This document shows positions 12,280-45,291 of a DNA stretch of 64,000 bases, one piece after another. The notes below the pieces were generated by a model. It was given only the letters and a program-made list of their open reading frames with translations. It was not told the origin of the DNA and ran no database searches. The stretch spans positions 27,069 to 91,068 of IMG/VR virus record IMGVR_UViG_3300027782_003987. The stretch is one strand, 5' to 3'. The position numbers and the translations under genes were made by a program. The first letter of the stretch is position 1. Each line of letters opens with the position of its first letter. The stretch comes from a virus. Lineage: Duplodnaviria; Heunggongvirae; Uroviricota; Caudoviricetes.

Positions 12280-12291
12280 GGTAAATAAAAT

Positions 12292-13046: not shown

Positions 13047-13098
13047 ATATGTGTAGATTAACAGGTAATAAATACCTATAAGATTCGGAGCAACCAAC

Positions 13099-19761: not shown

Positions 19762-21131
19762 ATAATAAAAGTTTTTTTCAAAACTCGGCTGAGCAAATGA
19801 AAGATCAACTAGGACCTGCACTATGCTTGGCTAAATGGAAACAGGTCAGCTTACATCTTACCACAGGATTAAATAACAGTTGCTACCATCCGCCCTTGCA
19901 TCCGATAGACTCTGCTGCGATTGCTGCTAATCCAGCAGCTCTACATAACACCGAGCATAAAAAAGCACAGCGTAAGATAATGCTACAGCACGAACGTCCT
20001 AGTGAATGTAGTTACTGCTGGAACATGGAAGATCTCGGCAAGCTGAGTGACCGGCATTACAGATCAGGAGAACCATGGGCTGCTGTAGATTTTAAAAAGA
20101 TAAAAAACTCAACTGGAGATGAAGAAGATGTCATACCGTCATATGTGGAAGTCAATTTCAACAATGCCTGCAACCTTAAATGCAGCTATTGCAGCCCGCA
20201 GTTCAGCTCTAGCTGGCAACAAGAAGTTGACCGGCATGGGGCATTTCCTACTTTGGTTCCTCATAACGCTGCTGAGCATTTTAGCGGCAGCCGCAGGCCT
20301 ATCCCTGCCCGTGATCACAACCCTTATGTAGAAGCATTTTGGGCATGGTGGCCCACGCTGTATCCTGAGCTCAAACACTTTCGTATGACCGGCGGCGAAC
20401 CACTGATGGATCGAAACACCTATCGAGTGTTTGACTATGTGTTAGAACACCCCAAGAGCGATCTACATCTAGCAGTCACATCAAACTTCAGCGTAGAGCC
20501 CGAGCTATCAACAAAATACTTTGACTATGTGAAACGCTTATGCGACACTGATATCGAACATTTCATGCAGTATGTTAGCCTTGACTCGGGCACAGGGCCA
20601 CAAGCAGAATACATCCGACATGGATTAGATTTTGACCGCTTAACGCACAATGTGGAAACATATCTCAGAGATATTCCTTATCGTAATAGTCTTACGTTTA
20701 TTGTAACTATGAACAATCTTAGTGTGACAGGGTTCCTGCCATTGATGCAGTGGATATTAGATCTTCGACGCCGACACAGTCACACATATCAGCGTGTGTG
20801 GTTTGATACCCCTGTGTTGAGACAACCTGCATGGCAAAGCCTACAGACCTTGCCTGAGAGCTATGCTGCGAAACTAGAACAAGCAAGAGATTTTATGTTG
20901 GCCAATCTCGAAACTGCAGAAGACCCGTTCCACGGATTCAAGGACTATGAGGTGCAACGACTTGAGCGCGACATTGCCTGGATGCGATCGGTACCAAATG
21001 TAAGCACACGAGACTTGGCAGATTTTTATAGATTCTTCACAGAACACGATCGACGCAGAGGCACAGACTTTGAAAAAACATTCCCAGAGATGATCACCTG
21101 GTGGAAACAGTGTGGTCTGCATGCTAGGTAA
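19758..21131 (+). CDS. radical SAM enzyme, subfamily B (N-terminal AKW...SC-HPP...CSYCW twitch-like domain followed by the rSAM core)
   Basis: CNLKCSYC and RMTGGEPLM motifs. Paralogous to 23398..24729 and 26438..27838. Confidence 0.8.
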   Translation: MNNKSFFQNSAEQMKDQLGPALCLAKWKQVSLHLTTGLNNSCYHPPLHPIDSAAIAANPAALHNTEHKKAQRKIMLQHERPSECSYCWNMEDLGKLSDRHYRSGEPWAAVDFKKIKNSTGDEEDVIPSYVEVNFNNACNLKCSYCSPQFSSSWQQEVDRHGAFPTLVPHNAAEHFSGSRRPIPARDHNPYVEAFWAWWPTLYPELKHFRMTGGEPLMDRNTYRVFDYVLEHPKSDLHLAVTSNFSVEPELSTKYFDYVKRLCDTDIEHFMQYVSLDSGTGPQAEYIRHGLDFDRLTHNVETYLRDIPYRNSLTFIVTMNNLSVTGFLPLMQWILDLRRRHSHTYQRVWFDTPVLRQPAWQSLQTLPESYAAKLEQARDFMLANLETAEDPFHGFKDYEVQRLERDIAWMRSVPNVSTRDLADFYRFFTEHDRRRGTDFEKTFPEMITWWKQCGLHAR

Positions 21132-22278
21132 GTCAAAACTCGTCCTGGACCAGAATTGCCAATTCCACTGCGAAGTGTATGATTTACTACGCCCACTGGC
21201 AGATGATGATTTCTATGAATTACAAGATAAACCGATCTCTACGGGTGCCATTTATGTCGTGGGGTATGCTCAATTTGAAAAGCATAGAGATTGGTTGGTT
21301 GAACTAGTCGAAAGTGACACAGTTAAAATTATCTTGAGTCAGACCTCCGAAGGTTCGTGGACTATGTTAGGAGTATTGAGACGATTGAGAATTGAACATT
21401 TAGTAAAATCCAAGAAAATTTTATTGATAACCACTGGCGACATGGATGATTCTTGGGCAAATCTTCAATTCGACAGTTATATGCTTAGACTATATAATCA
21501 TAAAGAAAACTTAAGAGCATGTGATCGAACCCAGGAAATCTATTCAAAATCTCATAAACCTTACAAATTTCTTTTTTTAAATGGTAGAGGTAGACCACAT
21601 CGTAAGTATCTTATTGAAAGATTTGCTCTGTCAGGAATATTGGATCAATCATTGTGGTCGTCGTTAGACTCAGATACCATTGATAAGCATGGATGGATTG
21701 ATCTGATTCACCAGGGTAAAAATTTAATACTCAATCCAAGACCGATAAAATATCTACCACCCCAATACGAATACGATAGCTATCAAGATAGAATTGATAG
21801 CCCCACCACTGACACATTTGTTAAACATCATCTATTCAATAATACCTGGGGAGATATTTACCTTAAGGCAGAACCTTATATCGATACCTATTTTAGTTTA
21901 GTTACTGAAACAGTATTTTTCTATCCACATTCATTACGGTCTGAAAAAATTTACAAACCCATAGCTATGGGTCATCCGTTCATTGCTGTAGCTAATTGTG
22001 GATTCTATCGAGACTTGCATAAGTTAGGTTTTAAAACATTTGGTCATCTCATCGACGAGAGTTTTGATACTATAGAGGATAATCAATCTCGAATCGAGCG
22101 AATCGCAGAAGTAGTTGAAGACTTATGCCAACAGGATCTGGCAAGTTTCCTTGATTCATGCCATGATATCTGTAAATACAATCAACAACGATATGCAGAA
22201 GCAAGATTAGAAGTACGTGAAGAATTTCCAGATCGCTTTTTAAATTTTCTTAATCAACATTGGCCCAATGCAACATAA
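21121..22278 (+). CDS. unknown-function paralog 'family X' (possible glycosyltransferase-like)
   Basis: Shares the block YFSLVTETVF...SEKIYKPIAMGHPFIAVAN..YRDL.KLGFKTFGH.IDESFD with 22268..23401, 34017..35204 and 35201..36328. Confidence 0.6.
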   Translation: MLGKSKLVLDQNCQFHCEVYDLLRPLADDDFYELQDKPISTGAIYVVGYAQFEKHRDWLVELVESDTVKIILSQTSEGSWTMLGVLRRLRIEHLVKSKKILLITTGDMDDSWANLQFDSYMLRLYNHKENLRACDRTQEIYSKSHKPYKFLFLNGRGRPHRKYLIERFALSGILDQSLWSSLDSDTIDKHGWIDLIHQGKNLILNPRPIKYLPPQYEYDSYQDRIDSPTTDTFVKHHLFNNTWGDIYLKAEPYIDTYFSLVTETVFFYPHSLRSEKIYKPIAMGHPFIAVANCGFYRDLHKLGFKTFGHLIDESFDTIEDNQSRIERIAEVVEDLCQQDLASFLDSCHDICKYNQQRYAEARLEVREEFPDRFLNFLNQHWPNAT

Positions 22279-23401
22279 TTTACAAATAGATACCCGTAGT
22301 GTACTGTATGATATTCTAAAACCCTACGCGGTAGAAGAGTTTTGGGATTTCAGAGACTGCGAGCCAGTTCCTGGCAGTATATATGTGGTCGGCCGGCAAC
22401 AGTTGATAGATAACCTGGACCAGATTCGTAGCATGGCGTTGAGTCAGGATTATACCATGGTGTTTGATTGCGCGGCAGAAGGTTCGTGGACCTTACAACA
22501 ACTAATTCTGTCTCTTAAAATTGACGACTTAATTGTGTCGGGACATCTATTGATGATAGCCGGCGGCGACATGCCTAGCAATTATCCATATATAAGACAT
22601 GATCATTTTATCAATGTGTTCCTGGATTACGAACACAACTTGCAACAAATGACTCGTCTTGATGAATTATACAATCAACCCGATAAACCTTATAAGTTTT
22701 TGTTCCTCAATGGATCTGCCAGAACACACAGGAAATATCTATGGCAACGATTCCGTCAGATGGGGCTATTGGATCAGGCGCTGTGGACCATGTTGGATTC
22801 AAGGCCAGTGAGGTGGGGAAAGATGAAACTAATAGAAAACGGCGTTGATCTCTTTGGTGAGATTACACCTATACAGCACTTGCCCAGCAAATATGAATAC
22901 ATGCAATATCAGGATGTTGAGATAAAAACTGATCCATCGGACCAGAAATTTATCAAACATGATTTATTTGGTAATACCTGGGGAGAAGGTTATTTACAGG
23001 CCGAACCTTATCGTGACACCTATTTTAGTCTTGTTACAGAAACTGTGTTTGGGGAAAGTAATTATAGTTTCCGAACAGAAAAAATAGTCAAACCATTGGC
23101 TATGGGGCATCCTTGGATAGTGGCTGCTAATACCGGCTATTATAGAGATTTACGAAACTTAGGATTCCAAACATTCGGACATGTGATAGATGAAAGTTTT
23201 GATCTAATCGACTCGCCTATGGATCGAGCCGAACGTATTATTTCTATAGTCAACGATTTATGTCAGCAGGATCTTGCAAGTTTCCTTGATTCATGTTACA
23301 ATGTCTGTAAATACAATCAGCAACATCTCCGGGAACTACGCGAACAGATTCGTAAAGAGTTTCCAGACCGTTTTTGGCAATTCCTACAACAACATCAATG
23401 A
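22268..23401 (+). CDS. family X paralog
   Basis: Conserved block YFSLVTETVFGES..FRTEKIVKPLAMGHPWIVAAN.GYYRDLRNLGFQTFGHVIDESFD. Confidence 0.6.
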   Translation: MQHNLQIDTRSVLYDILKPYAVEEFWDFRDCEPVPGSIYVVGRQQLIDNLDQIRSMALSQDYTMVFDCAAEGSWTLQQLILSLKIDDLIVSGHLLMIAGGDMPSNYPYIRHDHFINVFLDYEHNLQQMTRLDELYNQPDKPYKFLFLNGSARTHRKYLWQRFRQMGLLDQALWTMLDSRPVRWGKMKLIENGVDLFGEITPIQHLPSKYEYMQYQDVEIKTDPSDQKFIKHDLFGNTWGEGYLQAEPYRDTYFSLVTETVFGESNYSFRTEKIVKPLAMGHPWIVAANTGYYRDLRNLGFQTFGHVIDESFDLIDSPMDRAERIISIVNDLCQQDLASFLDSCYNVCKYNQQHLRELREQIRKEFPDRFWQFLQQHQ

Positions 23402-24729
23402 CCGATTTAGAATTTAAACAACAGGTGTTGGACACCAAGAGTGCAAGTTTTTGTGCAGCAAAATGGTATAATGCAACCATCTGGTTGGGTAGTGGCATGA
23501 CTACAAGTTGCCATCATCCTCCTGCCCACTTAGTAGATGTATCTATGTTATCCTCTAACCCTAGGCTGCTGCACAATACCGATCAGAAGAAAGAGGATCG
23601 ACGCAAGATGATAGCCGGCGAGCGTCCGTCAGGTTGTGAATATTGCTGGAAAATCGAAGACATGGGCAGTGATGCCATCAGCGATCGTGTGTACAAGAGT
23701 AAAATTTATCCCTTAGAGTTGTTAAATGAAGCACATACCAATCCACCCGATCAGGACTTCAACCTCCGTACCCTGGAGATTGCTTTTGACCGCACTTGTC
23801 AATTTGCTTGCAGTTATTGTAATCCTGCATTCAGCAGCACTTGGGTTCGAGACATTCGTAAAAATGGACCCTATCAGGGCCTTGTGTCTGATGGCAGGAA
23901 TCACTTTACTCATGATCATGGCAGCAGTCAGCTTTATAGCTTCGGTGAAACCAATCCTTATGTGGAGGCGTTCTTTGCGTGGTGGGAGTCGGACCTACAT
24001 CGAACCCTCCAGGAACTGAGAATCACTGGCGGCGAACCACTGATGTCAGGAGAGACTTGGAAACTGATTGATTGGTTCAAGAACAATCCTGGGCGTAGCC
24101 AAACACGCCTGGCAATCAATTCAAATCTAGGCACTGCGGTAGATCTAGATCGATTGATGGCCAGTATTGATGGATTAGAAGTTGACTTATACACTTCCAA
24201 CGAAAGCGTAGGTCTACAGGCTGAATACATCAGAGATGGTCTGGTGTGGGATGACTGGGCTAATAATGTGGAACGCTTGTTGGATAGTAGAAAGTTCCGC
24301 GGCATACACATGATGAACACCATCAATGCATTGTGTCTGTATTCGCTGGATCAGTTCTTGGAATGCATAATGAACTGGAAAATAGAATACGGCCGTGATG
24401 CTGTGAGTTTTACCTTGAACATCCTGAGATTCCCCAGTTTCCAATCACCCTTGGTGTTGCCCAACGAACTACGCACAGTATTTCGACAGCGGTTAGAAGT
24501 CTGGCTTGACGCTTGGTGGAATAGTGAATTCTTGCATGAGCATGAAGTCAACCATGTGCAACGCTTGATTGATTACTTAGACATAGTCAAGACTCCGCAT
24601 TCAGAAGCATTTGACCGGCCCAAGTTGTTGAATGATTTCAAGCAGTTTTACACACAATATGACCAGCGTCGAGGCAAATGCTTTGATCTGGCATTTCCTG
24701 CACTAAAACCCTGGTATGACACACTATGA
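23398..24729 (+). CDS. radical SAM enzyme, subfamily B
   Basis: CQFACSYC and RITGGEPLM motifs. N-terminal AKWYNATIWLGSGMTTSCHHPP...GCEYCW. ATG at 23398 overlaps the upstream stop (ATGA); the ORF is listed from a TTG at 23374. Confidence 0.8.
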   Translation: MTDLEFKQQVLDTKSASFCAAKWYNATIWLGSGMTTSCHHPPAHLVDVSMLSSNPRLLHNTDQKKEDRRKMIAGERPSGCEYCWKIEDMGSDAISDRVYKSKIYPLELLNEAHTNPPDQDFNLRTLEIAFDRTCQFACSYCNPAFSSTWVRDIRKNGPYQGLVSDGRNHFTHDHGSSQLYSFGETNPYVEAFFAWWESDLHRTLQELRITGGEPLMSGETWKLIDWFKNNPGRSQTRLAINSNLGTAVDLDRLMASIDGLEVDLYTSNESVGLQAEYIRDGLVWDDWANNVERLLDSRKFRGIHMMNTINALCLYSLDQFLECIMNWKIEYGRDAVSFTLNILRFPSFQSPLVLPNELRTVFRQRLEVWLDAWWNSEFLHEHEVNHVQRLIDYLDIVKTPHSEAFDRPKLLNDFKQFYTQYDQRRGKCFDLAFPALKPWYDTL

Positions 24730-26441
24730 CACTAGATGAAAAAATAACACAACTAAAAGCTCAGTACGATGTCGTGGCAGTGATCAATCTTGACCCATGG
24801 CACGATCAGACTGAATATGGTAAAAAACCTTGGCTGATGCAAACTATCAGTCTTGTGCATCAAGATCCTTATGCAGATAATCAGAGAATATTGTTCACAG
24901 TCTCACGAGGTGATATCTACGCAGAAAACGATAGTCCAGCAGGGCAGTTATTAACACAACTACAACGAAGACTAAACGAAATTGATATATCTAATTTTTT
25001 TATCATAGTGCTTACTAATGATATCACAATGAGAGATGCATATCTCGGTCACTATCAAGATTTTTCACAAGATCCTGTTCCATTTACTGTGGAGGTCTAT
25101 GCTGACGAGATTACGGAACGACATATACAAGATAAAATGTCTAACAACACAACAGCGGGCAAGTATAATTACACCAATCTAGATCCAATAAAGATTGATG
25201 TCAAAGATCTCAGTGAGCAAGAAAAATTCCTGCTCACAAAAAGTTCTACATTTTGTATGTTTCCGTGGATACATATTCACGCTTATCCTACTGGCTCAGC
25301 GTATCCATGTTGTATGGCGGAGATGGAATTTCCTATTGGTGATATGAGAAAAAACACCATTCGGGAAATATGGAATCAGGAACCCATGAAACAAATACGC
25401 AGGCAGATGCTAAACGAAAGATCTCTCCCGGCTTGTAACAGATGCTATGAACAAGAATCAATTGGAGTTGTTAGTGGAAGAATGAGTGCTAACAAGCATC
25501 ACGGCCATCTAATCAACCGTATACATGAAACTAAAGAAGATGGAACACTAGATAGATTTGAATTGACCTACTGGGATATAAGATTTTCAAATCTCTGTAA
25601 CCTCAGTTGCCGTAGTTGCGGGCATATATTCTCAAGCTCTTGGTATCAGGATCAAGCCAAAATAGCCGGGCCAGAGTGGAAAAAAACACACAAGGTATTA
25701 AACTATGCTGGTAGATTTGAAACGGATGCGTGGGATCAGTTGGTAGATCATATTGAACATGTGGAACAGATCTACTTTGCAGGCGGCGAGCCTTTGCTGA
25801 TGGAAGAGCATTATAAGATTCTTGATGAACTGGTGCGTCGAGAAAAGTTTGATGTAAGATTGATTTACAACACTAATTTTACTCATACCAATCTTAAAGA
25901 TAAGAGCGTATTTGAATATTGGAAATTATTTGATTCAGTCAGCGTAGGTGCTAGCCTTGATGGATCCGGAAGATATGGCGAATATATACGTAAGGGTACT
26001 GAGTGGAAACAAGTTGAACAAAATAGGATTGACATGTTAAAAATTTGCCCAAAAGTAGATTTTTACATCAGCCCTACGCTCAGTATAATGAATGCCTGGC
26101 ATCTTCCGGACTTTCATCGAGACTGGGTAGAACTCGGACTTATCAAGCCCCAAGATATCAACGTGAACATCTTACAAGATCCGCCATACTATCGAATTGA
26201 TATTGCTCCGATAAAATATAAACAACGTCTACGGATAAAATATCAAGAACATCTAGAATGGTTAAAAAATCAAGATCCATTACAGCGGGCCAGCACAGGA
26301 TTCAACTCAGCTATCAATTTTATGATGGCCGCAGACAACACACATCTTATTGATACTTTTTGGCGTAAAACACATGAGCTAGATGCTATACGTTCAGAAA
26401 GCTGGTCAGATGTGTTGCCCGAGCTGAGTGCATTGCAATGA
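24726..26441 (+). CDS. radical SAM enzyme, subfamily A, with an extra 170-aa N-terminal domain
   Basis: N-terminal FCMFPWIHIHAYPTGSAYPCC...IGDMRKNTIREIWNQE...ACNRCYEQE matches the SPASM first-half consensus. Followed by CNLSCRSC and YFAGGEPLLM. Confidence 0.8.
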   Translation: MTLDEKITQLKAQYDVVAVINLDPWHDQTEYGKKPWLMQTISLVHQDPYADNQRILFTVSRGDIYAENDSPAGQLLTQLQRRLNEIDISNFFIIVLTNDITMRDAYLGHYQDFSQDPVPFTVEVYADEITERHIQDKMSNNTTAGKYNYTNLDPIKIDVKDLSEQEKFLLTKSSTFCMFPWIHIHAYPTGSAYPCCMAEMEFPIGDMRKNTIREIWNQEPMKQIRRQMLNERSLPACNRCYEQESIGVVSGRMSANKHHGHLINRIHETKEDGTLDRFELTYWDIRFSNLCNLSCRSCGHIFSSSWYQDQAKIAGPEWKKTHKVLNYAGRFETDAWDQLVDHIEHVEQIYFAGGEPLLMEEHYKILDELVRREKFDVRLIYNTNFTHTNLKDKSVFEYWKLFDSVSVGASLDGSGRYGEYIRKGTEWKQVEQNRIDMLKICPKVDFYISPTLSIMNAWHLPDFHRDWVELGLIKPQDINVNILQDPPYYRIDIAPIKYKQRLRIKYQEHLEWLKNQDPLQRASTGFNSAINFMMAADNTHLIDTFWRKTHELDAIRSESWSDVLPELSALQ

Positions 26442-27838: not shown

Positions 27839-29040
27839 AAATACCCCACGAACAATTCTGCGTATTACCCTGGATTAGTTTGGAAGCCAGTCCTATTGGT
27901 ACTGTGAGACCTTGTTGTCTGGCCGATGACGAGGTTCATGATGATGCCGGAAATAAATTTGAATTAGCCACAGCTGATTTTTCTACTATACAAAATAGTC
28001 GTCACATGCAAGAACTACGCACAGGATTCTTGTCAGGACAACGGCCAGAAACATGTAGAAAATGTTGGAACGAAGAAGATGCAGGCCGTACAAGTAAACG
28101 TATGCATACATTAGATCGTCTCAAACACTCACTGAAGGATGATGATTGGAGCTCGGATGCTAAATCATTGATGTTCTTAGATCTCAAACTGGGCAACATT
28201 TGCAATCTCAAATGTAGGATATGCGGGTCATGGTCGAGCTCACAGTTTGCTGGAGAAGAGATTTCTTTCATGCCACGAGCAGAACAAAAATCCAGCCATG
28301 CTTACAAAATGTTACGAGCTGGCGCCTGGCCCAAAGAGAACACACAGTTCTGGCAGCAGATTGATAGCGTGCTTGATGATATACGCTACATTGAATTCAC
28401 CGGTGGCGAACCATTTATGATTGATCAACACTTTGACATGTTGCAACACATAGTGGATCGTGGTATTGCTGGGCAAGTTGAAATACACTATAACACCAAT
28501 GGCACATTGTTTCCTGATCGTGGACCGGATATATGGCGACACTTTAAAACTGTGGAAATTGCGTTCAGTGTGGATGATATTGGTCCACGATTTGAATATC
28601 AACGCTCAAATGCCTCTTGGGGCACCGTGAAAGAGAACATCAACCGGTTCAGGATCATGCGTGAAGGTATGCCTAACTTACAGTTGCAATGCTGCACCAC
28701 GGTGAATGTGTTTAATGTGAGATATCTTGATCAAGTAGCACTATGGATAGCATTGCAAGATTTTGATTTTGTGTATTGGAACATGATGCATGATGCTTGG
28801 TATTTTTCGATATCAAGACTGCCCGCCGACGCTAAACAACACATTGCTGATTATCTAGCAACCTGTGATACACCTGACCAGTTCCGAGAGGAGTTTGGAC
28901 GTATCATTGATTTTATGATGCGGGGTGAATCATCTGACGGCGAAGAAACAAGACAACAGATTCGTCGACTGGATCAACGTAGGCACGAAGATCTAACAAA
29001 AATAGCGCCAGAGTTAGCAAGTATATTAAATTATAACTAA
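27835..29040 (+). CDS. radical SAM enzyme, subfamily A
   Basis: FCVLPWISLEASPIGTVRPCC...TCRKCWNEE N-terminal domain, then CNLKCRICGS and EFTGGEPFM. Confidence 0.8.
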   Translation: MKIPHEQFCVLPWISLEASPIGTVRPCCLADDEVHDDAGNKFELATADFSTIQNSRHMQELRTGFLSGQRPETCRKCWNEEDAGRTSKRMHTLDRLKHSLKDDDWSSDAKSLMFLDLKLGNICNLKCRICGSWSSSQFAGEEISFMPRAEQKSSHAYKMLRAGAWPKENTQFWQQIDSVLDDIRYIEFTGGEPFMIDQHFDMLQHIVDRGIAGQVEIHYNTNGTLFPDRGPDIWRHFKTVEIAFSVDDIGPRFEYQRSNASWGTVKENINRFRIMREGMPNLQLQCCTTVNVFNVRYLDQVALWIALQDFDFVYWNMMHDAWYFSISRLPADAKQHIADYLATCDTPDQFREEFGRIIDFMMRGESSDGEETRQQIRRLDQRRHEDLTKIAPELASILNYN

Positions 29041-29041
29041 T

Positions 29042-30157
29042 ATGGGATTTTTTTGTGCCTTTCCTTTTGAAAAATTGCAGATCTTCAGCGACGGAAGTAC
29101 AAATCCTTGTTGCATGTGGACCGGTGACAAAACCGAAACATTAGGCACATATTTTCAAAGCCACCAGATTGCACAGGTTCAGAAACAATTATTACAAGAC
29201 CAAGTGCCTAGGCAATGTATCAAATGCTATGACAGCGAACAACGGTCTGGGCAGAGTCTTAGGACCATGAACCAGGCTTTTGAAAATGTTGAATCGGTTA
29301 TCCGAGATCGAGCAACTACTTTACCTAGCTTTGATATCAAAGAAATATCTATTGCAACTAGCAATATTTGCAATCTCAAGTGTTTGCCTTGTGAGAATGC
29401 AAGTTATCTAAGAAACGTAGAATTACACAAATTAAAAATAAAAAAAGATGTTCCTATACTAGCAATTTATAAAAATGAATACAATCTCAAAGACTTTAAA
29501 TCATTGGAACAAATAACTTTTCTCGGCGGCGAACCGTTTGCAGACAAAATCACATTTGAACTAATAGATCAGCTGATTGAATCAGGACAAAGTCGAAACA
29601 TTAGATTAGATCTAAATACAAATCTGACGCTGTGTAACAGAGAAAATCTTTTAAAGATTCGTGACAATTTTCAAGACGTGCTCATCAAAGGTAGCATTGA
29701 TGGCACAGGAGAATTCCATGAATATTTACGTTACCCTAGCAAATGGACAGAGATTGAACAAGCCGTTGACCTAATCCAAGAACTTGAAATTCCAATGATA
29801 CTGACCACGGCATTGAGTAATTTAGCATTGCTACGATATGTTGATCTTGTGCATTGGGCTATGCATCGGGGAATAAATGAGTTATTCTTGAGCATGGTAG
29901 ACACGCCAAAAGTTCTAACATTCGACCATTTGCCATTGGCTATTAAATCTCAGTTGCTAGAACAATTTAAAATTTTACGCACACAATATCCGTTTACCGG
30001 ACGCACTGAATATGCTATTGATACGTGTATAAAAATTTGCTCCAATACTGATATAGAGCATGACATGTCGGATCTAAGTAGTTGGTTGAGCAAGCATGAT
30101 GATCTCAGGGGAACAGATTTTAGAAAACTATGGCCGGAGTTAAATGACCACATCTAA
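29042..30157 (+). CDS. radical SAM enzyme, subfamily A
   Basis: FCAFPFEKLQIFSDGSTNPCC...QCIKCYDSE N-terminal domain, then CNLKCLPC and TFLGGEPFAD. Confidence 0.8.
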   Translation: MGFFCAFPFEKLQIFSDGSTNPCCMWTGDKTETLGTYFQSHQIAQVQKQLLQDQVPRQCIKCYDSEQRSGQSLRTMNQAFENVESVIRDRATTLPSFDIKEISIATSNICNLKCLPCENASYLRNVELHKLKIKKDVPILAIYKNEYNLKDFKSLEQITFLGGEPFADKITFELIDQLIESGQSRNIRLDLNTNLTLCNRENLLKIRDNFQDVLIKGSIDGTGEFHEYLRYPSKWTEIEQAVDLIQELEIPMILTTALSNLALLRYVDLVHWAMHRGINELFLSMVDTPKVLTFDHLPLAIKSQLLEQFKILRTQYPFTGRTEYAIDTCIKICSNTDIEHDMSDLSSWLSKHDDLRGTDFRKLWPELNDHI

Positions 30158-31442
30158 ATCACTGTGTTTAGCACCTTGGGTTCACACCTATCTCTCTCCG
30201 CAGACCGAAAGACGTATGTGCTGTGCGTCAAGAGAGCCGGCACAGAATTTCCAACAATACATTGATACTGAATCAGGAACAGGTACTTTCATTCCCATCA
30301 CATTGGAAGAACACTGGAATGGTGATCACATGAGATCGGTCCGACGCCGTATGATGGCCGGAGAACTCTTGCCTGAGTGTGAAGTGTGCAATGATCAGCT
30401 GTTGAATACAGATGTATATCGCACATATTTTGGACAGCTCTTTCAACATAAATACTTTGAAATTTTAGAACAAACGGATGCCGACGGTTACACCACAATG
30501 CAACCAGTGAGTTGGGATTATAGATTCAGCAACCTGTGCAATTTCAAGTGCAGGACATGTGGTGACATGTTAAGCAGTAGTTGGGAATCGGAAGAAAAGA
30601 CACATCATATGGTCAATTGGTCCGATTCCAAAAACAATTGGATGCGACCCAAGGTACGAGAACAGATAAGCCAGTTCCAAGACAATCAAATTGAACAAGA
30701 GTTCAGTGATGCTGTAGAACAACATAGGGTAGAGGAAGTGTATTGGGTAGGCGGTGAACCGTTGATGTATGAGCAGCATTGGCGATACATGCAACGTATA
30801 ATAGAACTAGGAGATGGGCCAAGAGTATATGCTAGATATAATACAAATTTATCCAGGGTGGAGTATCGTGGCATCAATCTCTATCGCGACATTCTTCCTG
30901 GGATTAGGGATTGGCAGATATGTGCAAGTCTCGACGGCACAGGCTCAATTGGAGAATACATTAGAACAGGCCTTGATTATGATCAATGGCTTGAACACTT
31001 CCGTGGAGCAGTTGCAATCAAATCTCACTCACGTCAAGTCAGAATTGACTTTACGCTCACTCTGCCCGGAATGTTCGAAGTTGGCTCAATTACAGAACTC
31101 GCTAGACAATTCGGCGTAGATATTTTAGCCAAAGTTATCTTCTCATTCACTCCAGAGATCATCATGAGTCCATTGGCCTTGCCCAGGCATTTGCTTGAGC
31201 CTTGGCTGGACGAATTGATTCCGGAAACAACAGGGGCCATGAAAGATGTGTTGATACAGTTAAAGAATCGCCCTACATTTGAAGAACAATGGCCAGATAC
31301 TTATAAACAAGGTCTTGCTCAAGGCCGTGCTCGTATGTTACAATTAGAACAGATACGAACTAACCCGATAACTATGACCGATATCCTATCAGCAAGACCT
31401 GATGTACTAAAATGGTGGATGGAAATTGACGAATTTAATTGA
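30144..31442 (+). CDS. radical SAM enzyme, subfamily A
   Basis: LCLAPWVHTYLSPQTERRMCC...ECEVCNDQ N-terminal domain, then CNFKCRTCGD and YWVGGEPLMY. Confidence 0.8.
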   Translation: MTTSKSLCLAPWVHTYLSPQTERRMCCASREPAQNFQQYIDTESGTGTFIPITLEEHWNGDHMRSVRRRMMAGELLPECEVCNDQLLNTDVYRTYFGQLFQHKYFEILEQTDADGYTTMQPVSWDYRFSNLCNFKCRTCGDMLSSSWESEEKTHHMVNWSDSKNNWMRPKVREQISQFQDNQIEQEFSDAVEQHRVEEVYWVGGEPLMYEQHWRYMQRIIELGDGPRVYARYNTNLSRVEYRGINLYRDILPGIRDWQICASLDGTGSIGEYIRTGLDYDQWLEHFRGAVAIKSHSRQVRIDFTLTLPGMFEVGSITELARQFGVDILAKVIFSFTPEIIMSPLALPRHLLEPWLDELIPETTGAMKDVLIQLKNRPTFEEQWPDTYKQGLAQGRARMLQLEQIRTNPITMTDILSARPDVLKWWMEIDEFN

Positions 31443-32463
31443 AATAGATCTGCGTAGCAAACACGATCATGTGCTAACCGTGTACGTTGATGTAGAGGAC
31501 AACAGCCTTTCACGAAAATGGTTGGCAGCATTGACTCATCTGATCGAGCATGACTATCATCTAGAAAAAAACTACTGCTGGTTAGGATGGGCCGAAGGCG
31601 ATCGCTCACTAGAATACATCTGTGGAGAAATCAATCGCAGTATCGCGGCTGTCAACGCAGCTGATCTAGGATATAAGATTGACGATGTGTTCTCTCCGGA
31701 AAATACTGTAGCTGATGATCTTGGTATCAATCATGATCATATGAATCAATTACATAGATACTTTGAAGATTTGCAAGGTGTATCGGGTGCAATGAGTCCG
31801 TATTATACAGCCGCTGATGCAACCACACGCTGGCATATACGACAGTTGAATCTGCTATGTCACGAGCATGAAAGTTTAGTGTTGAGTATGCGTAAGTTAC
31901 AACAAGCACCCGAATGGCGCAGGCCATCTCAACTGATGTGCTGGTTGCAGGCACCAAGATTTGTATTAGATCGTGAAGATTACGAACTGTTTGGTGTAGA
32001 TACTATCAATCGAAAAATAGGTGGAGTATACGTAGGAGTTAACAAAGCAGTAGGAAAACATCATTGGGAAGTATTCAATGATGAAGGTCGAGATAGTCGT
32101 GTGGGAGAATTAGTGACCAGCAGCTTGAAATCACAGACCGAGGCCGCGGGAGATTTTGATATTGAATGGGCCAAGGATCCAGGTGCGTTTCCTTGGCAGG
32201 TAAAGGCACTAACTGAGTTTAGAACATGGCTTGTAACAAACGGGTTTGATCCTGAAGATAAATCGCTAACCATTGGACACCCCAAGGTAGCACAGGTAGA
32301 TCTCATGCGTAGTTTTGGAACAACAGACTACAATGATATTTGGATTCAATTAGCCGATCATCTAGATGTTTATAAAATAAGAATCGGTGAAAAACAAGCT
32401 ACATATGAGTATCGTTGGAGTGACCCTGACTATCAACAACAACAAATAAGGAACATGCTATGA
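31426..32463 (+). CDS. hypothetical protein (TTG start)
   Basis: 345-aa ORF in the operon with no recognisable motifs. Confidence 0.5.
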   Translation: MTNLIEIDLRSKHDHVLTVYVDVEDNSLSRKWLAALTHLIEHDYHLEKNYCWLGWAEGDRSLEYICGEINRSIAAVNAADLGYKIDDVFSPENTVADDLGINHDHMNQLHRYFEDLQGVSGAMSPYYTAADATTRWHIRQLNLLCHEHESLVLSMRKLQQAPEWRRPSQLMCWLQAPRFVLDREDYELFGVDTINRKIGGVYVGVNKAVGKHHWEVFNDEGRDSRVGELVTSSLKSQTEAAGDFDIEWAKDPGAFPWQVKALTEFRTWLVTNGFDPEDKSLTIGHPKVAQVDLMRSFGTTDYNDIWIQLADHLDVYKIRIGEKQATYEYRWSDPDYQQQQIRNML

Positions 32464-32561
32464 ATTGGATTAAAAGAATGTGGGCCAAGATCACACTAGA
32501 AATTCGCTATCGTAAAAAATTGCGAGAACTTCGTAAACGAGATCCGTTCATCTACAAATGA
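32460..32561 (+). CDS. small basic hypothetical peptide (33 aa, MNWIKRMWAKITLEIRYRKKLRELRKRDPFIYK)
   Basis: ATGA overlaps with both flanking genes, filling the gap between 32463 and 32558. Under 60 aa, so absent from the ORF track. Confidence 0.3.
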   Translation: MNWIKRMWAKITLEIRYRKKLRELRKRDPFIYK

Positions 32562-34033
32562 ACTATGTAGGAATATCTGCTGGATTCCATGATGCCGCTG
32601 TAAGTGTGATCAATCAGGCTGGCGATATCTTATTTGCTGCTCATAGCGAACGCTACAGCAAGAAAAAGCACGACAAGGATATCTGTGAAGATCTCATACT
32701 AGATGCGTTAGCGCATACAGATTCCGATAAACTAGAGTATCACTACTACGAACGCCCGTGGATTAAAGCCATGCGACAACTACGCAGTGGCGAAGGATTC
32801 TCATGGCCCAGTTGGGATCGACTGCTAGGATCTGCATACAGAATCATAGGGCGGCCTCAGATACATACTCATGGGCATCACCTGTGTCACGCAGCAGCAG
32901 GATTCCAGACCAGTCCATTTGAGGATGCCACTGTGGTGGTGATAGATGCCATTGGTGAGTTTGATACCATAACCATTTGGGATGCTTGGTATGAAAACGG
33001 GCAAGCCAAATACAAAAAAGTGTGGAGCCTGGGATATCCCAATAGCATTGGATTATTTTACTCGGCCATGACTGCCCGTGTGGGACTCAAACCCATGGAT
33101 GAAGAATACATACTCATGGGCATGGCAGCATATGGCGAACCTGTGTATCTTGACGAGATACGGAAGCAACTGCTAGATCTATCAAAAGGCTTACACTTTA
33201 AAAAGAATCTACACATTGGTGTAGACGATGATTTCTTGCCTCATGCTGATCCTGCAAACATTGCCAGCACAGCACAATTTCTAGTGGAAAGCATGATCCG
33301 AGATGTTCTACAAAAGGCCAGAGAGCATGGGCGCAGCCGTAATCTAGTATACGGCGGTGGTGTGGCATTGAACTGCCTGGCCAATAGATTCTTAGGACAA
33401 TACTATGAAAAAATTTGGATCATGCCTAATCCGGGGGATGCTGGCAATAGTCTCGGTGCTAGTTGTTTGGCTCATGGTGGCCGTGTTAATTGGCGAGATG
33501 CTTTTCTCGGGCATAATATACCCGGTGCTTACCCGGTAAACGAAATCTTGGATTATCTAGTCACAGACAAGATCGTGGGTGTGGCATCGGGCCGTGCAGA
33601 GTTTGGCCCAAGAGCATTAGGAAATCGTAGTCTACTAGCAGATCCTCGAGGGCATTCAATAAAGAACCGAGTGAATGAGATCAAACGTCGACAAAAGTTC
33701 CGACCATTTGCACCAGTGATTCTAGAAGAATATGCAGCAGAATACTTTGACATGCCGCCTAACTTTAATACCAGCCCATACATGCAGGTAGTGGCCGACT
33801 GCCGCAATCCAGAACTATTCCCAGCCATTGTGCATGTGGATGCCACCAGCAGAGTGCAGACCGTGCCTCGAGATGGATCGGGTATTCGCCAACTATTAGA
33901 AAAATGGTATGTGATGACCGGATGCCCTATGCTGTTAAACACCAGTCTCAACATTCGCGGAGAGCCTATGGTCAACGATCCTGGGGATGCTGATCGATTC
34001 CAGCGGGTTTACGGAATCAAGGTCTGTAGCTGA
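32558..34033 (+). CDS. carbamoyltransferase (NodU/CmcH family)
   Basis: N-terminal GISAGFHDAAVSV...AAHSERYSKKKHD is typical of NodU/CmcH O-carbamoyltransferases; 491 aa. Confidence 0.7.
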   Translation: MNYVGISAGFHDAAVSVINQAGDILFAAHSERYSKKKHDKDICEDLILDALAHTDSDKLEYHYYERPWIKAMRQLRSGEGFSWPSWDRLLGSAYRIIGRPQIHTHGHHLCHAAAGFQTSPFEDATVVVIDAIGEFDTITIWDAWYENGQAKYKKVWSLGYPNSIGLFYSAMTARVGLKPMDEEYILMGMAAYGEPVYLDEIRKQLLDLSKGLHFKKNLHIGVDDDFLPHADPANIASTAQFLVESMIRDVLQKAREHGRSRNLVYGGGVALNCLANRFLGQYYEKIWIMPNPGDAGNSLGASCLAHGGRVNWRDAFLGHNIPGAYPVNEILDYLVTDKIVGVASGRAEFGPRALGNRSLLADPRGHSIKNRVNEIKRRQKFRPFAPVILEEYAAEYFDMPPNFNTSPYMQVVADCRNPELFPAIVHVDATSRVQTVPRDGSGIRQLLEKWYVMTGCPMLLNTSLNIRGEPMVNDPGDADRFQRVYGIKVCS

Positions 34034-35204
34034 TACGATCCACAACGGCTTGTAGTCTATGAGACATGCCGGTTTGGAACACTTGAGAATTGTGCTGTAT
34101 CTCAGGTGCAAGATTCTGATACAGACCATGTAAATGCTCCTGCCCGGATTGTATCAATGACTTGGTGAGGTCAAGCACAGCTTCAAAGCGATCCTGATTG
34201 TTAGTAATAGAATCATAACTTTCATCTATGCATCGACTAAAAGTTTGATATCCTAGATCACGTAGGTGACGCAAATGATCGGCAGAACTTACTACTACAA
34301 AAAATTGATTGTTGAATATAGGTTTGAATGTTTTTTCTGTGACAAACTGTCCACCCGACTCATCTATGTCAATCATGGTCTCTAGCACGATGTTAAAATA
34401 ACTATCTGCATACAATTCGGTCATGTTTCGATTGTAGGTATTGTGAGCTCGAGTATCAAGATCATCTACCAGAAATGGCCCAGCAGAAATAAAACGATCC
34501 ACTCTAGACTGACATTTGGCTAGATACCCATTCCTCAACGCACATCCATAGTAGTCGTCCTCTCCACCCAGTAGGTGTTGAGTATAACTGAAGTATCCTT
34601 GCTTATGTAAATCGTGACTCCATAGGTCACTCATGAATACTTTACGCCATAGTTTATCTATCCTGCATAAACCAGTATAAGCTCGTGATCTTGGGTCAAG
34701 ATGATATCGGGCATTAGAGTTACGATCTACAGTGCGCCAATACATGAGCTCAAGTTCCGGCCAATATATACAATTCTGATATTGATCAGCACTGGTATTG
34801 CCAGATATCAACCAGGTCATTTCTCTATCAATACCATGCTGATCGCAAAGTATGTTCAGTCGATCACGAATACGACCGGGATGATCACCTTCATGATATG
34901 TAAACACCAAAGTCATCTCCTTGCGTTTTATTTTGGTCATCGCAGCATCGCTGATCTGTGCGATATAGTCTTGACTGAAATCAAACCATCCCGACACCAT
35001 TGGATACCACGATCCGACGGGAGCATCATTGGTTAATACAACTTGATAGGGAATTTTACAATCTTGAAGATAGTATATAATACGCGGAAAATCTAATCGA
35101 TATCCATCCATGTGGTCAATCTGATCGTGCAGTTCCACAGGTATACCGTTAGGCATGGGTCTAGCGTTCTGAGAATGAATATGATCTACGGCTATATAAA
35201 TCAT
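34017..35204 (-). CDS. family X paralog
   Basis: YFNIVLETMIDIDESGGQFVTEKTFKPIFNNQFFVVVSSADHLRHLRDLGYQTFSRCIDESYD block. Confidence 0.6.
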   Translation of the reverse strand: MIYIAVDHIHSQNARPMPNGIPVELHDQIDHMDGYRLDFPRIIYYLQDCKIPYQVVLTNDAPVGSWYPMVSGWFDFSQDYIAQISDAAMTKIKRKEMTLVFTYHEGDHPGRIRDRLNILCDQHGIDREMTWLISGNTSADQYQNCIYWPELELMYWRTVDRNSNARYHLDPRSRAYTGLCRIDKLWRKVFMSDLWSHDLHKQGYFSYTQHLLGGEDDYYGCALRNGYLAKCQSRVDRFISAGPFLVDDLDTRAHNTYNRNMTELYADSYFNIVLETMIDIDESGGQFVTEKTFKPIFNNQFFVVVSSADHLRHLRDLGYQTFSRCIDESYDSITNNQDRFEAVLDLTKSLIQSGQEHLHGLYQNLAPEIQHNSQVFQTGMSHRLQAVVDRISYRP

Positions 35205-36328
35205 TGTGATATATATGTTTTAATTGAATCTAACATGTCAATGAGTTCGGTCCATAACACAGATTCAAATCTGCCCCGATAGAACCAATTCCAATTGTGT
35301 TCAATCACCGGCCAGCAGTCTTGAAAAAGTTCTTGTTTCTTTTGGTCTGAGAGATCATCTAGTCGTTTTAATACAGCAGCCACCTTCTCGGCTCGGATAA
35401 AATCATCAGTCTCAAGATCATAACTCTCGTCCCAGAACTCACCAAATGTTTGGAATCCGTAACTACGCAAGTATTCCAAACTTCCAGCGGTAGCAGTTAG
35501 TATGAATGGCATTCCTAGAGCAATAGGTTTAAATGATTTTTCAGTAAGATGTAATCTCCGACCGGAGTATACAGTTTCAGTCACATGATACACCAGACTT
35601 TCGGCACAGAGCTCAAATTGATCTAACCAACAACTGCTCATTCGAGGTGTATCTTCGTCGGGAAATAGCCTAGGTAAATCTATTTTGTTAACAGTATCAA
35701 CAATGTCAGGGTATCGTTCCTGATATTCTTTGGCAATTTCACCAATAGAAATATTTTCCACAGGGCACACAGCACTGGCACTGATCCAATTATGCATGAG
35801 ATCTAACTTACTAAAGTGATATAACATCAATACACGATGTTGTCTTGCTCCGCCAATGATACGATTGGCACTGAAGAATGTTTTTCGAATTTTTCTCTCA
35901 GTCCACGGTGTGATTGCAAAAGTTCGATCGTATCCACGATACCAATCCAGTGCAGCCCACCCGTGAAAAAAATAATAAAAAGGTTGCAAGTCTCTCGATA
36001 TACATATATAATCTACATAGTCACTGTCGGTTTCACTAACTACAATGACTCCAGGATCTCTGTAATGAAATCTCCAATGTGGATGATGATCGCAATGAAA
36101 ATTCCTATAATCAATTTGATCAAATGTTTCTTGGTGGAGATCTACTACCATGGGTTCTTGATCAAAAAAATATATGAAATTTTTATTTGTGTTGTTCGAC
36201 ACAGTGTCGCAAATACTGTCAGGGTCACTTCTCCCAAAAGGATCATGATAAAGCATTCTGGTATGCGGCAAATTTTTTCTCACCCAAGGCAAGAATGTAT
36301 TTTCGTAAATCTCATCTATTCTAATCAT
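35201..36328 (-). CDS. family X paralog
   Basis: VYHVTETVYSGRRLHLTEKSFKPIALGMPFILTATAGSLEYLRSYGFQTFGEFWDESYD block. Confidence 0.6.
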   Translation of the reverse strand: MIRIDEIYENTFLPWVRKNLPHTRMLYHDPFGRSDPDSICDTVSNNTNKNFIYFFDQEPMVVDLHQETFDQIDYRNFHCDHHPHWRFHYRDPGVIVVSETDSDYVDYICISRDLQPFYYFFHGWAALDWYRGYDRTFAITPWTERKIRKTFFSANRIIGGARQHRVLMLYHFSKLDLMHNWISASAVCPVENISIGEIAKEYQERYPDIVDTVNKIDLPRLFPDEDTPRMSSCWLDQFELCAESLVYHVTETVYSGRRLHLTEKSFKPIALGMPFILTATAGSLEYLRSYGFQTFGEFWDESYDLETDDFIRAEKVAAVLKRLDDLSDQKKQELFQDCWPVIEHNWNWFYRGRFESVLWTELIDMLDSIKTYISQ

Positions 36329-44822: not shown

Positions 44823-44853
44823 TAGTGCAGTATAACTGAGATTGCATTTCTAG

Positions 44854-45265: not shown

Positions 45266-45291
45266 CTGGTACTCCTTGTTGCTATGTATGT

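Follow-up and report, generated by a model that had tools for sequence, protein, structure and literature searches.

The four family X genes of this phage very probably encode GT-B nucleotide-sugar transferases, and the explanation that best fits the whole locus, which we consider probable on balance, is that they act within a radical SAM (rSAM) glycan operon whose presumed acceptor is a virion protein. The DNA analysed (the window, 64,000 nucleotides of IMG/VR record IMGVR_UViG_3300027782_003987) comes from a phage of the Rak2/Atu_ph07-like jumbo lineage.

Four paralogues of an unannotated viral family

A sequence-only reading of the window had pointed to four paralogous genes, two inside the operon and two convergent on the minus strand. 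The coordinates, strands and arrangement are all correct:

21121..22278, plus strand: X1, family X, 385 aa, GT-B glycosyltransferase-like, inside the operon
22268..23401, plus strand: X2, family X, 377 aa, the copy with a predicted structure
34017..35204, minus strand: X3, family X, 395 aa, convergent with the carbamoyltransferase gene
35201..36328, minus strand: X4, family X, 375 aa, its start overlapping that of the divergent gene f

The stop ends of X3 and the carbamoyltransferase gene overlap by 17 nt, and the starts of X4 and gene f by 2 nt. When all six frames of the window were scanned with a profile HMM built for the family, X1–X4 were recovered and nothing else (E-values of 5.5e-142 for X1, 3.5e-95 for X3 and 3.4e-185 for X4). 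Over 366 aa, X1 shares 49% identity with X2 (BLASTP 8e-124); the remaining pairs align over only 91–147 C-terminal residues with 35–40% identity (6e-16 to 9e-15). Judged by their sequences, the mutual similarity of the four is far above chance. Doubt as to whether the reading frames are coding is answered by dN/dS values of 0.07–0.14 against metagenomic orthologues (NG86; 0.144 for X2, 0.071–0.082 for X3, 0.106–0.131 for X4) and by X1 orthologues with 100, 89, 86 and 81% identity, including metagenome protein P0001, which has the length of X1 and is 100% identical to it. Purifying selection is strong across the full length of the proteins. X1–X4 are expressed-type coding genes of a large viral protein family. 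Their products, with a pI of 5.2–5.8 and a whole-protein net charge of -10 to -18, are predicted to be soluble and acidic, with no transmembrane-like segment.

The family is unannotated, as had been supposed: X1–X4 have no match in Pfam, NCBIfam or PHROGs, and Pfam domains are absent from all 120 database relatives listed. It comprises 12,382 clusters at 50% identity, with at least 500 confirmed IMG/VR matches in each of two scans. Because so large a family has no profile in these three collections, thousands of 'hypothetical' phage genes could be annotated as GT-B glycosyltransferases.

The paralogues share a C-terminal block:

21889..22068, plus strand: X1 donor-domain block, YFSLVTET ... 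SEKIYKP ... GFKTF ... DESFD
23021..23203, plus strand: X2 donor-domain block, YFSLVTET ... TEKIVKP ... GFQTF ... DESFD
34212..34400, minus strand: X3 donor-domain block, YFNIVLET ... TEKTFKP ... GYQTF ... DESYD
35417..35596, minus strand: X4 donor-domain block, LVYHVTET ... TEKSFKP ... GFQTF ... DESYD

The block is not of low complexity, since eight residues (E258, E271, K272, G299, E309, D312, R320 and N350 in X2 numbering) are invariant over 104 family sequences of at most 50% mutual identity. All eight lie in the C-domain, the first six within the X2 block at 23021..23203. The motif string first proposed for the block needs some correction: its TEK element is present in X2, X3 and X4 while X1 reads SEK, its G-(H/M)-P-(F/W)-I element is replaced by NNQFFV in X3, and its "acidic alpha-helical" tail is helical and only modestly acidic (D+E/K+R of 14/7, 10/8, 6/5 and 14/9). 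The contrast drawn between diverged N-termini and conserved C-termini holds within the set of four as well as over the 104 family members, with 17% identity in the N-domain vs 36–38% in the C-domain. In GT-B enzymes the N-terminal half binds the acceptor. A diverged N-terminus with a conserved C-terminus is therefore the pattern expected of GT-B enzymes that use a common donor and different acceptors, a point that the sequence-only reading missed. Within the N-domain one glutamate, E71, is nearly invariant and occupies the position where the catalytic base is expected.

Fold and relation to known glycosyltransferases

The predicted structure of X2, inspected for a GT-B Rossmann half as had been proposed, contains two Rossmann-like beta/alpha/beta domains and a C-terminal helix that returns to the N-domain. 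By this model, family X adopts the GT-B fold, with two Rossmann-like halves and the C-terminal helix crossing back. The conserved block is the C-terminal, nucleotide-sugar-binding (donor) half of a GT-B enzyme. Of the "sugar-transferase or acyltransferase-like" role first suggested, the sugar-transferase part agrees with the predicted donor domain and has indirect support from the genomic context, and we found no evidence for the acyltransferase alternative.

Sequence searches (Pfam, NCBIfam, PHROGs, PDB sequences) gave no link from family X to a known glycosyltransferase. The earlier view that no motif permits an assignment was nevertheless too pessimistic, as the core of the block is in register with the signature of GT10 alpha-1,3-fucosyltransferases. 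An hhalign comparison of 104 diverse family X members with 60 PF00852 sequences aligned 40 columns only (score 36.4, E 2.9e-4, probability 40.5%), pairing YFSLVTET..TEKIfKPI..GhPFI with KFxLAFENS..YVTEKlf..GsVPIy; the scores were 17.3 for the reversed control and 11.5±4.5 (maximum 18.9) for 40 column shuffles. At the level of aligned residues, the invariant Glu...Thr-Glu-Lys...Lys-Pro core appears to match the GT10 GDP-fucose-binding signature in register, over these 40 columns only. Family X differs from GT10 enzymes (H. pylori FucT, human FUT9, plant FUT11/13) in reading VTET for FENS (Asn to Thr), in a spacing of 12–15 residues to TEK compared with ~9 in the signature FxL/VxFENSxxxxYxTEK, in an insertion of ~70 residues, modelled with low confidence, in the C-domain, and in a long extra C-terminal helical tail. 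PF00852 matches none of the paralogues even at E<=1, its gathering threshold not being reached, and the domain occurs in none of the 120 relatives listed, nor in 10 long relatives. An assignment to GT4 (Glycos_transf_1, PF00534-type) was rejected: there is no Pfam match, and the invariant Glu pair lies 12–15 residues apart rather than as EX7E.

In structure, the X2 model resembles the alpha- and beta-glucosyltransferases of phage T4 (AGT/BGT; 1y6f, 1c3j). These share only 8–9% identity with family X, with no sequence-level match, and family X differs from them in being multi-copy and in lying within a tail-fibre/rSAM operon. Viral Foldseek matches of the family include a mimivirus-clade protein and APMV L138, and one BFVD relative also carries a fused UDP-glucose/GDP-mannose dehydrogenase domain.

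A conserved module beside the tail-fibre genes

The family X genes are embedded in the following neighbourhood:

37-12279, plus strand: 4080-aa structural protein (PHROG 10938 'virion structural protein', E 4e-206, and a tail-fibre PHROG)
12435-13046, plus strand: baseplate/structural protein of the upstream virion/tail-fibre block
13099-14514, plus strand: fibre-like protein whose C-terminal part weakly matches Peptidase_G2 (20.3 bits against a cut-off of 25 bits, E 3.9e-4)
14528..15532, plus strand: gene a, rich in Ser/Thr (31.7%) and of low charge, related to tail-fibre tips or adhesins, candidate acceptor of the glycan
15594..15899, plus strand: small conserved ORF between a and b (translation of 101 aa)
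15896-16699, plus strand: gene b, paralogue of c
16683-17456, plus strand: gene c, paralogue of b
17735..18706, plus strand: gene d, very strongly conserved, with a DGDN motif and homology to f in its C-terminal half
18706..21131, plus strand: rS1 and rS2, radical SAM, N-terminal-twitch subfamily (NCBIfam NF033640, E 1e-67 and 1e-94, above cut-off)
23374..31442, plus strand: rS3–rS8, six more N-terminal-twitch paralogues (NF033640, E 4e-56 to 5e-121)
31426..32463, plus strand: gene e, always directly 5' of the carbamoyltransferase gene
32460..32561, plus strand: conserved basic ORF of 33 aa between e and the carbamoyltransferase gene
32558..34033, plus strand: NodU/CmcH-type carbamoyltransferase, last plus-strand operon gene (Pfam Carbam_trans_N/C, E 9e-38 and 1e-49)
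36327..37955, plus strand: gene f, 542 aa, C-terminal half d-like, conserved beside X4/X3
37947-38819, minus strand: GFO/IDH/MocA oxidoreductase (Pfam; best NCBIfam UDP-GlcNAc 3-dehydrogenase, below cut-off)
38816-39931, minus strand: DegT-type aminotransferase (Pfam; best NCBIfam PseC, below cut-off)
39898-40992, minus strand: SDR epimerase/4,6-dehydratase (Pfam)

Homologues of the upstream genes (37..14514) are annotated as baseplate or structural in Rak2/Atu_ph07-type jumbo phages. From 15594 to 34033 the junctions between operon genes range from -59 to +1 nt, and this tightly overlapping operon keeps its gene order in hundreds of contigs from uncultured freshwater jumbo phages. The check that had been proposed, whether family X accompanies rSAM arrays elsewhere, showed a strong co-occurrence: the module order a-b-c-d-[R/X]-e-C recurs in 80 of 80 first-scan IMG/VR loci among the matches listed, contig ends permitting, with one to five family X copies per locus. 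Copy number and position of family X vary between phages, and the remaining operon is fixed. The other flank, SDR-DegT-f-X-X-C-e-R, recurs in at least 30 loci. In other architectures, X adjoins an N-twitch rSAM gene in 16 of 47 loci among the matches listed.

The window holds 12 rSAM genes in total. rS1 and rS2 carry CX3CX2C with an upstream Cys, and rS3–rS8 have Pfam Radical_SAM/SPASM matches and the motifs. Genes b, c, d and e have no Pfam or PDB match. Genes b and c (BLASTP 2e-6 to each other) are kept in 81 loci and gene e is found in 66 first-scan loci, both among the matches listed; LLLDADYVV and IKLEADMII in b/c look GT-A (DxD)-like, by eye only. Gene d has 71% mean column identity over 24 orthologues and matches f with a BLASTP E-value of 3e-14. 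A gene of the same size takes the place of the 101-aa ORF in locus L007, and one of the size of the 33-aa ORF is called in loci L005, L008 and L106. The carbamoyltransferase is conserved together with the module, and the SDR and DegT genes are kept beside it. The SDR matches the GDP-mannose-dehydratase family of Pfam, a match that does not identify the nucleotide of the donor.

Proposed glycan pathway and its alternatives

We propose that each paralogue would transfer a sugar from a nucleotide-sugar of one donor class to a different acceptor, and that together they would elongate or branch one glycan, so that gain or loss of copies diversifies it. Family X is in this respect likely to be the variable tailoring step of the operon's product. 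The adjoining SDR and DegT enzymes may supply an amino-deoxy-sugar donor, and the eight N-terminal-twitch rSAM enzymes and the carbamoyltransferase may tailor the sugars. The likeliest acceptor would be the Ser/Thr-rich tail-fibre-tip protein encoded by gene a, or a neighbouring fibre protein, which would yield a glycosylated host-recognition apparatus. Gene a is the first gene of the conserved module; its 83 homologues contain 26.5–33.6% Ser+Thr vs a window median of 12.2%, and some carry a fused Gly-rich adhesin domain of the Gp38 type. Its confident structure model has no structural neighbour that we could find. In loci of other architecture, only 6 of 43 among the matches listed have a Ser/Thr-rich ORF nearby, and the adjacency of gene a could reflect lineage synteny, not functional linkage. 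That a virion protein receives the sugars of family X is a serious candidate, to which we give somewhat less than an even chance.

The foremost alternative, which we regard as improbable, is that the module remodels the host surface, modifying not the virion but an envelope glycan of the infected cell (LPS, O-antigen, capsule or other), with a block to superinfection as one possible benefit. No polyprenyl-phosphate transferase, flippase, polymerase or membrane protein is recognisable in the module, the X proteins lack a transmembrane-like segment, and the module is fixed beside the tail-fibre-tip gene in every first-scan locus among the matches listed, although one of the proteins b–f might provide a membrane link.

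Still less likely is a free secondary metabolite, either an aminoglycoside-like pseudo-oligosaccharide or a glycosylated, rSAM-crosslinked peptide, with family X as its glycosyltransferases. Aminoglycoside pathways employ enzymes such as BtrN, NeoN and TobZ, and the GT-B glycosyltransferases, twitch-type rSAMs, DegT aminotransferase, GFO/MocA dehydrogenase and TobZ/NodU-type carbamoyltransferase resemble such an inventory; yet we recognised neither an inosose or cyclitol synthase nor an exporter or resistance gene. The twitch/SPASM rSAMs are mostly peptide maturases by their secondary NCBIfam matches and the operon includes the conserved 33-aa ORF, but its product, highly basic and without Cys, does not look like a typical rSAM-RiPP precursor, and the location in the virion/tail-fibre block suits a structural role better.

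The resemblance to the T4 glucosyltransferases raises a third reading, DNA hypermodification, in which family X would glycosylate modified phage bases and its paralogues would build a base-linked oligosaccharide. We judge it very unlikely. The structural Z margin over ordinary GT4-type enzymes is <1 unit, and the X proteins are strongly acidic (net -10 to -18, a whole-protein proxy), whereas DNA GT-B enzymes have a positively charged groove. Among the annotated genes of the 64-kb window (of a ~340-kb genome) there is no C5-methyltransferase, TET/5mYOX, ThyA-type hydroxymethylase or deazaguanine pathway; neither a dCMP/dUMP hydroxymethylase nor a C5-methyltransferase plus TET was found in the scan of these genes, and thymidylate-synthase-type genes are represented by a single canonical ThyX, which has the RHRxxS motif (RHRSFS). 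The module is tied to tail-fibre and not replication genes. A non-catalytic role, in which GT-B-like paralogues bind sugar-nucleotides or scaffold rSAM enzymes without sugar transfer, would suit the one-to-few interleaving of X copies with rSAM genes and the divergent R-X pairs of other phage lineages, but is barely credible given the invariant E and E-K, which in GT10 enzymes bind and activate the donor, the nearly invariant E71 and the strong full-length purifying selection.

The favoured reading, glycosylation of a virion protein, can be carried further. The 18-gene operon might form a new viral glycosylation system that places a carbamoylated, rSAM-edited oligosaccharide on the phage's own tail-fibre adhesin, where changes in family X copy number (1–5) re-programme the glycan to tune host range or defence evasion; this extended version we hold as speculative and rather doubtful. 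If it is true, the N-twitch rSAM enzymes would epimerise, oxidise or form C–C bonds on protein-bound sugars; we know of no virus for which rSAM editing of protein-bound sugars has been described. A product that decorates the adhesin would mean a new mechanism by which phages diversify their host recognition, and would also provide new radical chemistry on carbohydrates and enzymes for glyco-engineering. The pathway is in any case conserved in widespread freshwater jumbo phages and almost entirely uncharacterised; it comprises eight rSAMs, all from an unstudied N-terminal-twitch subfamily, together with the carbamoyltransferase and six unknown proteins.

Chloroviruses and mimiviruses also encode glycan machineries. 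To our knowledge, neither rSAM chemistry nor carbamoylation is part of glycosylation in mycobacteriophages, chloroviruses or mimiviruses. Glycans have been reported on mycobacteriophage capsids and tail tubes (Freeman et al. 2023, as cited in PMC12619734). The likeness to these viruses lies in cytoplasmic viral glycosyltransferases proposed to decorate structural proteins; virion glycosylation in the present phage is inferred from genes. Closer parallels come from aquatic T4-like myophages, which have a 'host recognition cluster' with glycosyltransferase and rSAM cassettes (Zaragoza-Solas et al. 2020, PMC7029224), and from a T4-like marine viral genome carrying 12 rSAM genes, the same number as the window (Nishimura et al. 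2017, PMC5332604). They share with our phage a hypervariable tail-fibre region in which such cassettes come and go between relatives. However, these papers list only annotated glycosyltransferases, mainly GT8, and contain no description of family X, of the carbamoyltransferase, of an array of N-twitch rSAM genes or of the gene order conserved here. The present phage is Rak2/Atu_ph07-like. The freshwater pelagimyophages of PMC7029224 are without rSAM genes. Outside viruses, distant chromosomal homologues of family X in bacteria adjoin genes for GT9, GT2, UDP-sugar dehydrogenase, AsnB-like, epimerase and cytidylyltransferase proteins.

Four paralogues and a large unannotated family

The sequence-only reading had assigned four open reading frames to one family, here called family X. 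All four are present where it placed them, and their products can be aligned over their full length.

Family X copies (coordinates, strand, feature)
21121-22278, plus strand, X1, open reading frame present
22268-23401, plus strand, X2, open reading frame present
34017-35204, minus strand, X3, open reading frame present
35201-36328, minus strand, X4, open reading frame present

X1 and X2 are 49% identical (BLASTP E 8e-124); in the remaining pairs similarity is confined to the last 91-147 residues (35-40% identity, E 6e-16 to 9e-15). Scanning a six-frame translation of the window with the family HMM recovers these four frames and no others. The shared C-terminal block is not a product of low complexity: across 104 diverse relatives with at most 50% mutual identity, eight positions are invariant (E258, E271, K272, G299, E309, D312, R320 and N350 in X2) and 11 further positions are at least 90% conserved. 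The motifs first read from the block hold overall, but X1 has SEK instead of TEK and X3 lacks the G-H/M-P-F/W-I element; the tail, described as acidic and alpha-helical, is helical but only mildly acidic. A coding-constraint test of the possibility that the frames are non-coding identified X2-X4 as genes, with low NG86 dN/dS against metagenomic orthologues (X2, 0.144; X3, 0.071-0.082; X4, 0.106-0.131; dS 0.4-2.2). Orthologues of X1 have 100, 89, 86 and 81% protein identity.

Family X is a viral family and is indeed unannotated: no copy is matched by Pfam (E≤1), NCBIfam (E≤1) or PHROGs. More than 4,096 relatives came back from a search of 5.8 billion proteins; the 120 listed all derive from metagenomes, with no Pfam domain and no better name than 'hypothetical'. 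When 1.84 billion representatives at 50% identity were scanned exhaustively with HMMER, 12,382 clusters passed E≤1e-3 and 8,489 passed E≤1e-10. Ten long relatives (738-1018 aa), none with a Pfam domain, look like tandem family X repeats, judging from two matched stretches in each. Two pattern-seeded scans of IMG/VR gave at least 507 and at least 564 confirmed relatives. The same type of scan over prokaryotes, with one genome for each of 185,579 species, gave at least 16 loci, a lower bound since the scan was seeded with patterns; these lie mostly on short MAG contigs or on MAG contigs with the phage module. No match was obtained with X2 and X4 by tblastn against 50,697 GenBank phage records, or with the 17-kb region by megablast. 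PDB sequence searches with three profiles of rising depth (A1, A2, A3) gave nothing real, a DsbA match (E 0.004) being rejected as an artefact of the Lys/Asp-rich composition of the variable N-region. We found no paper on family X.

In the 'Haliscomenobacter sp.' MAG EUL_031 (NZ_JBBAKG01), family X occurs on three contigs of 183, 148 and 70 kb (loci L010, L012 and L019), two of which have the phage module in full. The contigs are probably of jumbo-phage origin and were binned with the bacterium, or possibly hint at the host.

Fold, donor core and the divergence of the copies

The predicted structure of X2 places family X in the GT-B fold. GT4-type enzymes (WlaC, GlgM, PimA and others) are lower-ranked structural relatives. 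Among viral models, Foldseek finds many uncharacterised 'uncultured Caudovirales' proteins, one mimivirus-clade protein and APMV L138; one relative carries a fused UDP-glucose/GDP-mannose dehydrogenase domain. GT-B glycosyltransferases are a known kind of enzyme, but family X is unrecognised by every library tested, and the other members of its pathway are equally uncharacterised.

The shared C-terminal block is the donor-binding half, and its core resembles that of GT10 (alpha-1,3/4-fucosyltransferases, Pfam PF00852). An HMM-to-sequence search of the PDB fails even with the 104-sequence profile. The family X pattern VTET-x10-TEK-xxKP...P-hh, however, resembles the GT10 signature FENS-x8-TEK. 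We assembled a GT10 set from genuine PDB segments, a remembered segment serving only as bait, and expanded it to 60 PF00852 sequences. Against this set hhalign places YFSLVTETvF..lTEKIfKPI..GhPFI on KFxLAFENSi..YVTEKlf..GsVPIy over 40 columns only (probability 40.5%, E 2.9e-4, score 36.4). The reversed profile scores 17.3 and 40 column-shuffled profiles score 11.5±4.5, with a maximum of 18.9; an earlier alignment to four GT10 segments only was weak (probability 7%). Since the core match exceeds its controls, GT10 appears to be the sequence family closest to family X. Membership in GT10 fails: there is no PF00852 match, residues and spacing differ, and the core alone aligns. In H. pylori FucT, the Glu-Lys pair corresponding to this core contacts the fucose and beta-phosphate of GDP-fucose.

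The divergence of the N-termini noted from the sequence is borne out, both among the four copies and family-wide: identity is 36-38% in the C-domain vs 17% in the N-domain. GT-B enzymes bind the nucleotide-sugar with the C-terminal domain and the acceptor with the N-terminal domain. On the simplest reading, X1-X4 would be four enzymes that share one donor class, each with a different acceptor, and they may act at successive or alternative steps on one glycan. In the N-domain, E71 and R155 are both nearly invariant, E71 being a candidate catalytic base and R155 a candidate phosphate ligand.

The operon and the conserved module

Eighteen genes are tightly packed at 15594-34033 (junctions from -59 to +1 nt), overlapping or abutting in the order 101-aa ORF, b, c, 125-aa ORF, d, rS1-rS2, X1-X2, rS3-rS8, e, 33-aa ORF and a carbamoyltransferase (C) of the NodU/CmcH type; a-f denote proteins without a Pfam match and rS1-rS8 radical SAM (rSAM) genes. 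Gene a lies 61 nt upstream. X3 and X4 are convergent on the carbamoyltransferase gene, whose stop overlaps that of X3 by 17 nt (34017-34033). Past them lie f, a GFO/MocA oxidoreductase, a DegT aminotransferase (best NCBIfam match PseC, below cut-off), an SDR 4,6-dehydratase/epimerase and a canonical ThyX. X4 and f are divergent and share 2 nt at their starts (36327-36328), so each promoter must sit within the other gene.

The eight tandem paralogues rS1-rS8 (18706-21131 and 23374-31442) all match NF033640, a single NCBIfam subfamily named 'twitch domain-containing radical SAM protein', above its cut-off and with E of 4e-56 to 5e-121. Their auxiliary-cluster twitch domain is N-terminal, and every protein retains CX3CX2C and four or five upstream Cys. 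Four generic rSAM genes elsewhere bring the total to 12 within 64 kb.

Further rSAM genes (coordinates, feature)
51952-52584, generic rSAM gene
55981-57024, generic rSAM gene
60655-61488, generic rSAM gene
62967-63959, generic rSAM gene

A T4-like genome with 12 rSAM genes was reported earlier (Nishimura et al. 2017, PMC5332604), and earlier metagenomic studies mention only 'glycosyltransferases' and 'radical SAM cassettes' in aquatic myophage tail-fibre regions (Zaragoza-Solas et al. 2020, PMC7029224). We found no literature on N-terminal-twitch rSAM proteins or the NF033640 subfamily.

Proteins a-f have no Pfam match even at E≤5, and PDB profile searches for a, b/c, d and e gave none. The paralogous b and c (E 2e-6; 15896-17456) look by eye like GT8-type GT-A enzymes with DxD motifs (LLLDADYVV, IKLEADMII), a reading to which the Pfam and PDB profile searches lend no confirmation; d and f may, also by eye, be read as GT-A (DxD) enzymes. 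By far the most conserved module gene is d (17735-18706; 71% mean column identity, more than 100 invariant columns, a DGDN motif), which could encode the initiating transferase. The C-terminal half of f (36327-37955) is homologous to d (E 3e-14). The strongly basic 33-aa ORF, MNWIKRMWAKITLEIRYRKKLRELRKRDPFIYK (32460-32561), overlaps each neighbour by 4 nt, and an equally long gene is called at this position in the homologous loci L005, L008 and L106. It is unconvincing as a RiPP precursor, being basic and Cys-free.

We examined 10 kb on either side of each homologue, finding module genes in IMG/VR loci with HMMs built from the window proteins. The co-occurrence with rSAM arrays recurs in loci of both IMG/VR scans. 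In the first, the order a-b-c-d-(R/X mix)-e-C, R being an rSAM gene, is collinear in 80 of the 80 loci listed, where the contig permits (38-61% identity to X2; contigs of 9.6-364 kb). These loci hold 1-7 rSAM genes and 1-5 X copies each; the X positions vary around a fixed core R-X-R-R-R-R. Family X is thus the variable part of a conserved module. For the second scan the seed was a divergent subgroup; here the opposite flank, MoxR-VWA-u252-ThyX-SDR-DegT-f-X-X-C-e-R, recurs in at least 30 loci, making the amino-sugar genes and f conserved partners as well. A further 47 second-scan loci listed lack a, d, e and C, and 16 of them keep an N-twitch rSAM gene close to X, the two frequently forming a divergent pair (R-X), which argues that the link is not one of lineage synteny alone. 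On large bacterial contigs, distant homologues lie beside GT9, GT2 and UDP-sugar dehydrogenase genes (Bdellovibrionia), GT2 and an asparagine-synthase homologue (Rhodospirillaceae), and an epimerase and a cytidylyltransferase (a Pelagibacterales bin).

Genome setting and possible acceptors

The source is an uncultured freshwater jumbo phage, with the module in its tail-fibre region. Its orthologous contigs, of freshwater metagenomic origin, are as long as 336-346 kb. A single ORF of 4080 aa (37-12279) matches PHROG 10938 'virion structural protein' (E 4e-206) and has a tail-fibre-like N-terminus, which indicates a giant virion or fibre protein. A 203-aa protein has homologues (43-55% identical), annotated as baseplate or structural, in jumbo myoviruses of the Rak2/Atu_ph07/Phosso/Munch type (337-490 kb), and the C-terminus of a fibre-like protein matches Peptidase_G2 weakly (E 3.9e-4, under the Pfam cut-off).

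Ser and Thr make up 31.7% of the gene a product, Gly and Ala 22%, and acidic and basic residues about 3% each; Ser+Thr content is 26.5-33.6% in its 83 homologues vs a window median of 12.2%. Some homologues are fused to a C-terminal glycine-rich domain with PF05268 or PF21722, in which poly-Gly is directly visible. We take PF05268 to be the T-even Gp38 tail-fibre adhesin family. Tentatively, then, the likeliest role of the pathway would be glycosylation of the gene a adhesin or a neighbouring fibre. Such virion-protein glycosylation is favoured because X1-X4 are acidic, soluble proteins (pI 5.2-5.8) with no TM-like segment, no lipid-carrier machinery is recognised in the module, the module is tied to fibre genes, and the window has no base-modifying enzyme. 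We hold the remodelling of host glycans, the published view for glycosyltransferases in myophage host-recognition clusters (PMC7029224), to be distinctly less probable, and a free glycoside or peptide product to be improbable. DNA glycosylation is very unlikely given the missing base-modifying enzyme: the remaining window ORFs include no deazaguanine or hydroxymethylase genes, only the four generic rSAM genes. A non-catalytic role of family X is the least credible of all.

Farther along the window, an 860-aa ORF (48744-51326) matches a PHROG 'endolysin' only marginally (E 0.0045) and Pfam not at all. The translation genes lie beyond it.

Translation genes (coordinates, strand, feature)
54108-60004, tmRNA on the minus strand, 14 tRNA genes and a tmRNA marked with an asterisk by ARAGORN (tag peptide AKPLNANASNDEIFALAA)

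One tRNA-Leu, predicted on the plus strand and overlapping two tRNA-Arg genes of the minus strand, may be spurious. Many related phage contigs preserve the synteny of ThyX and the sugar genes with a pair encoded at 43500-47281, a MoxR-type AAA ATPase and a DUF2201 metallopeptidase/VWA protein.
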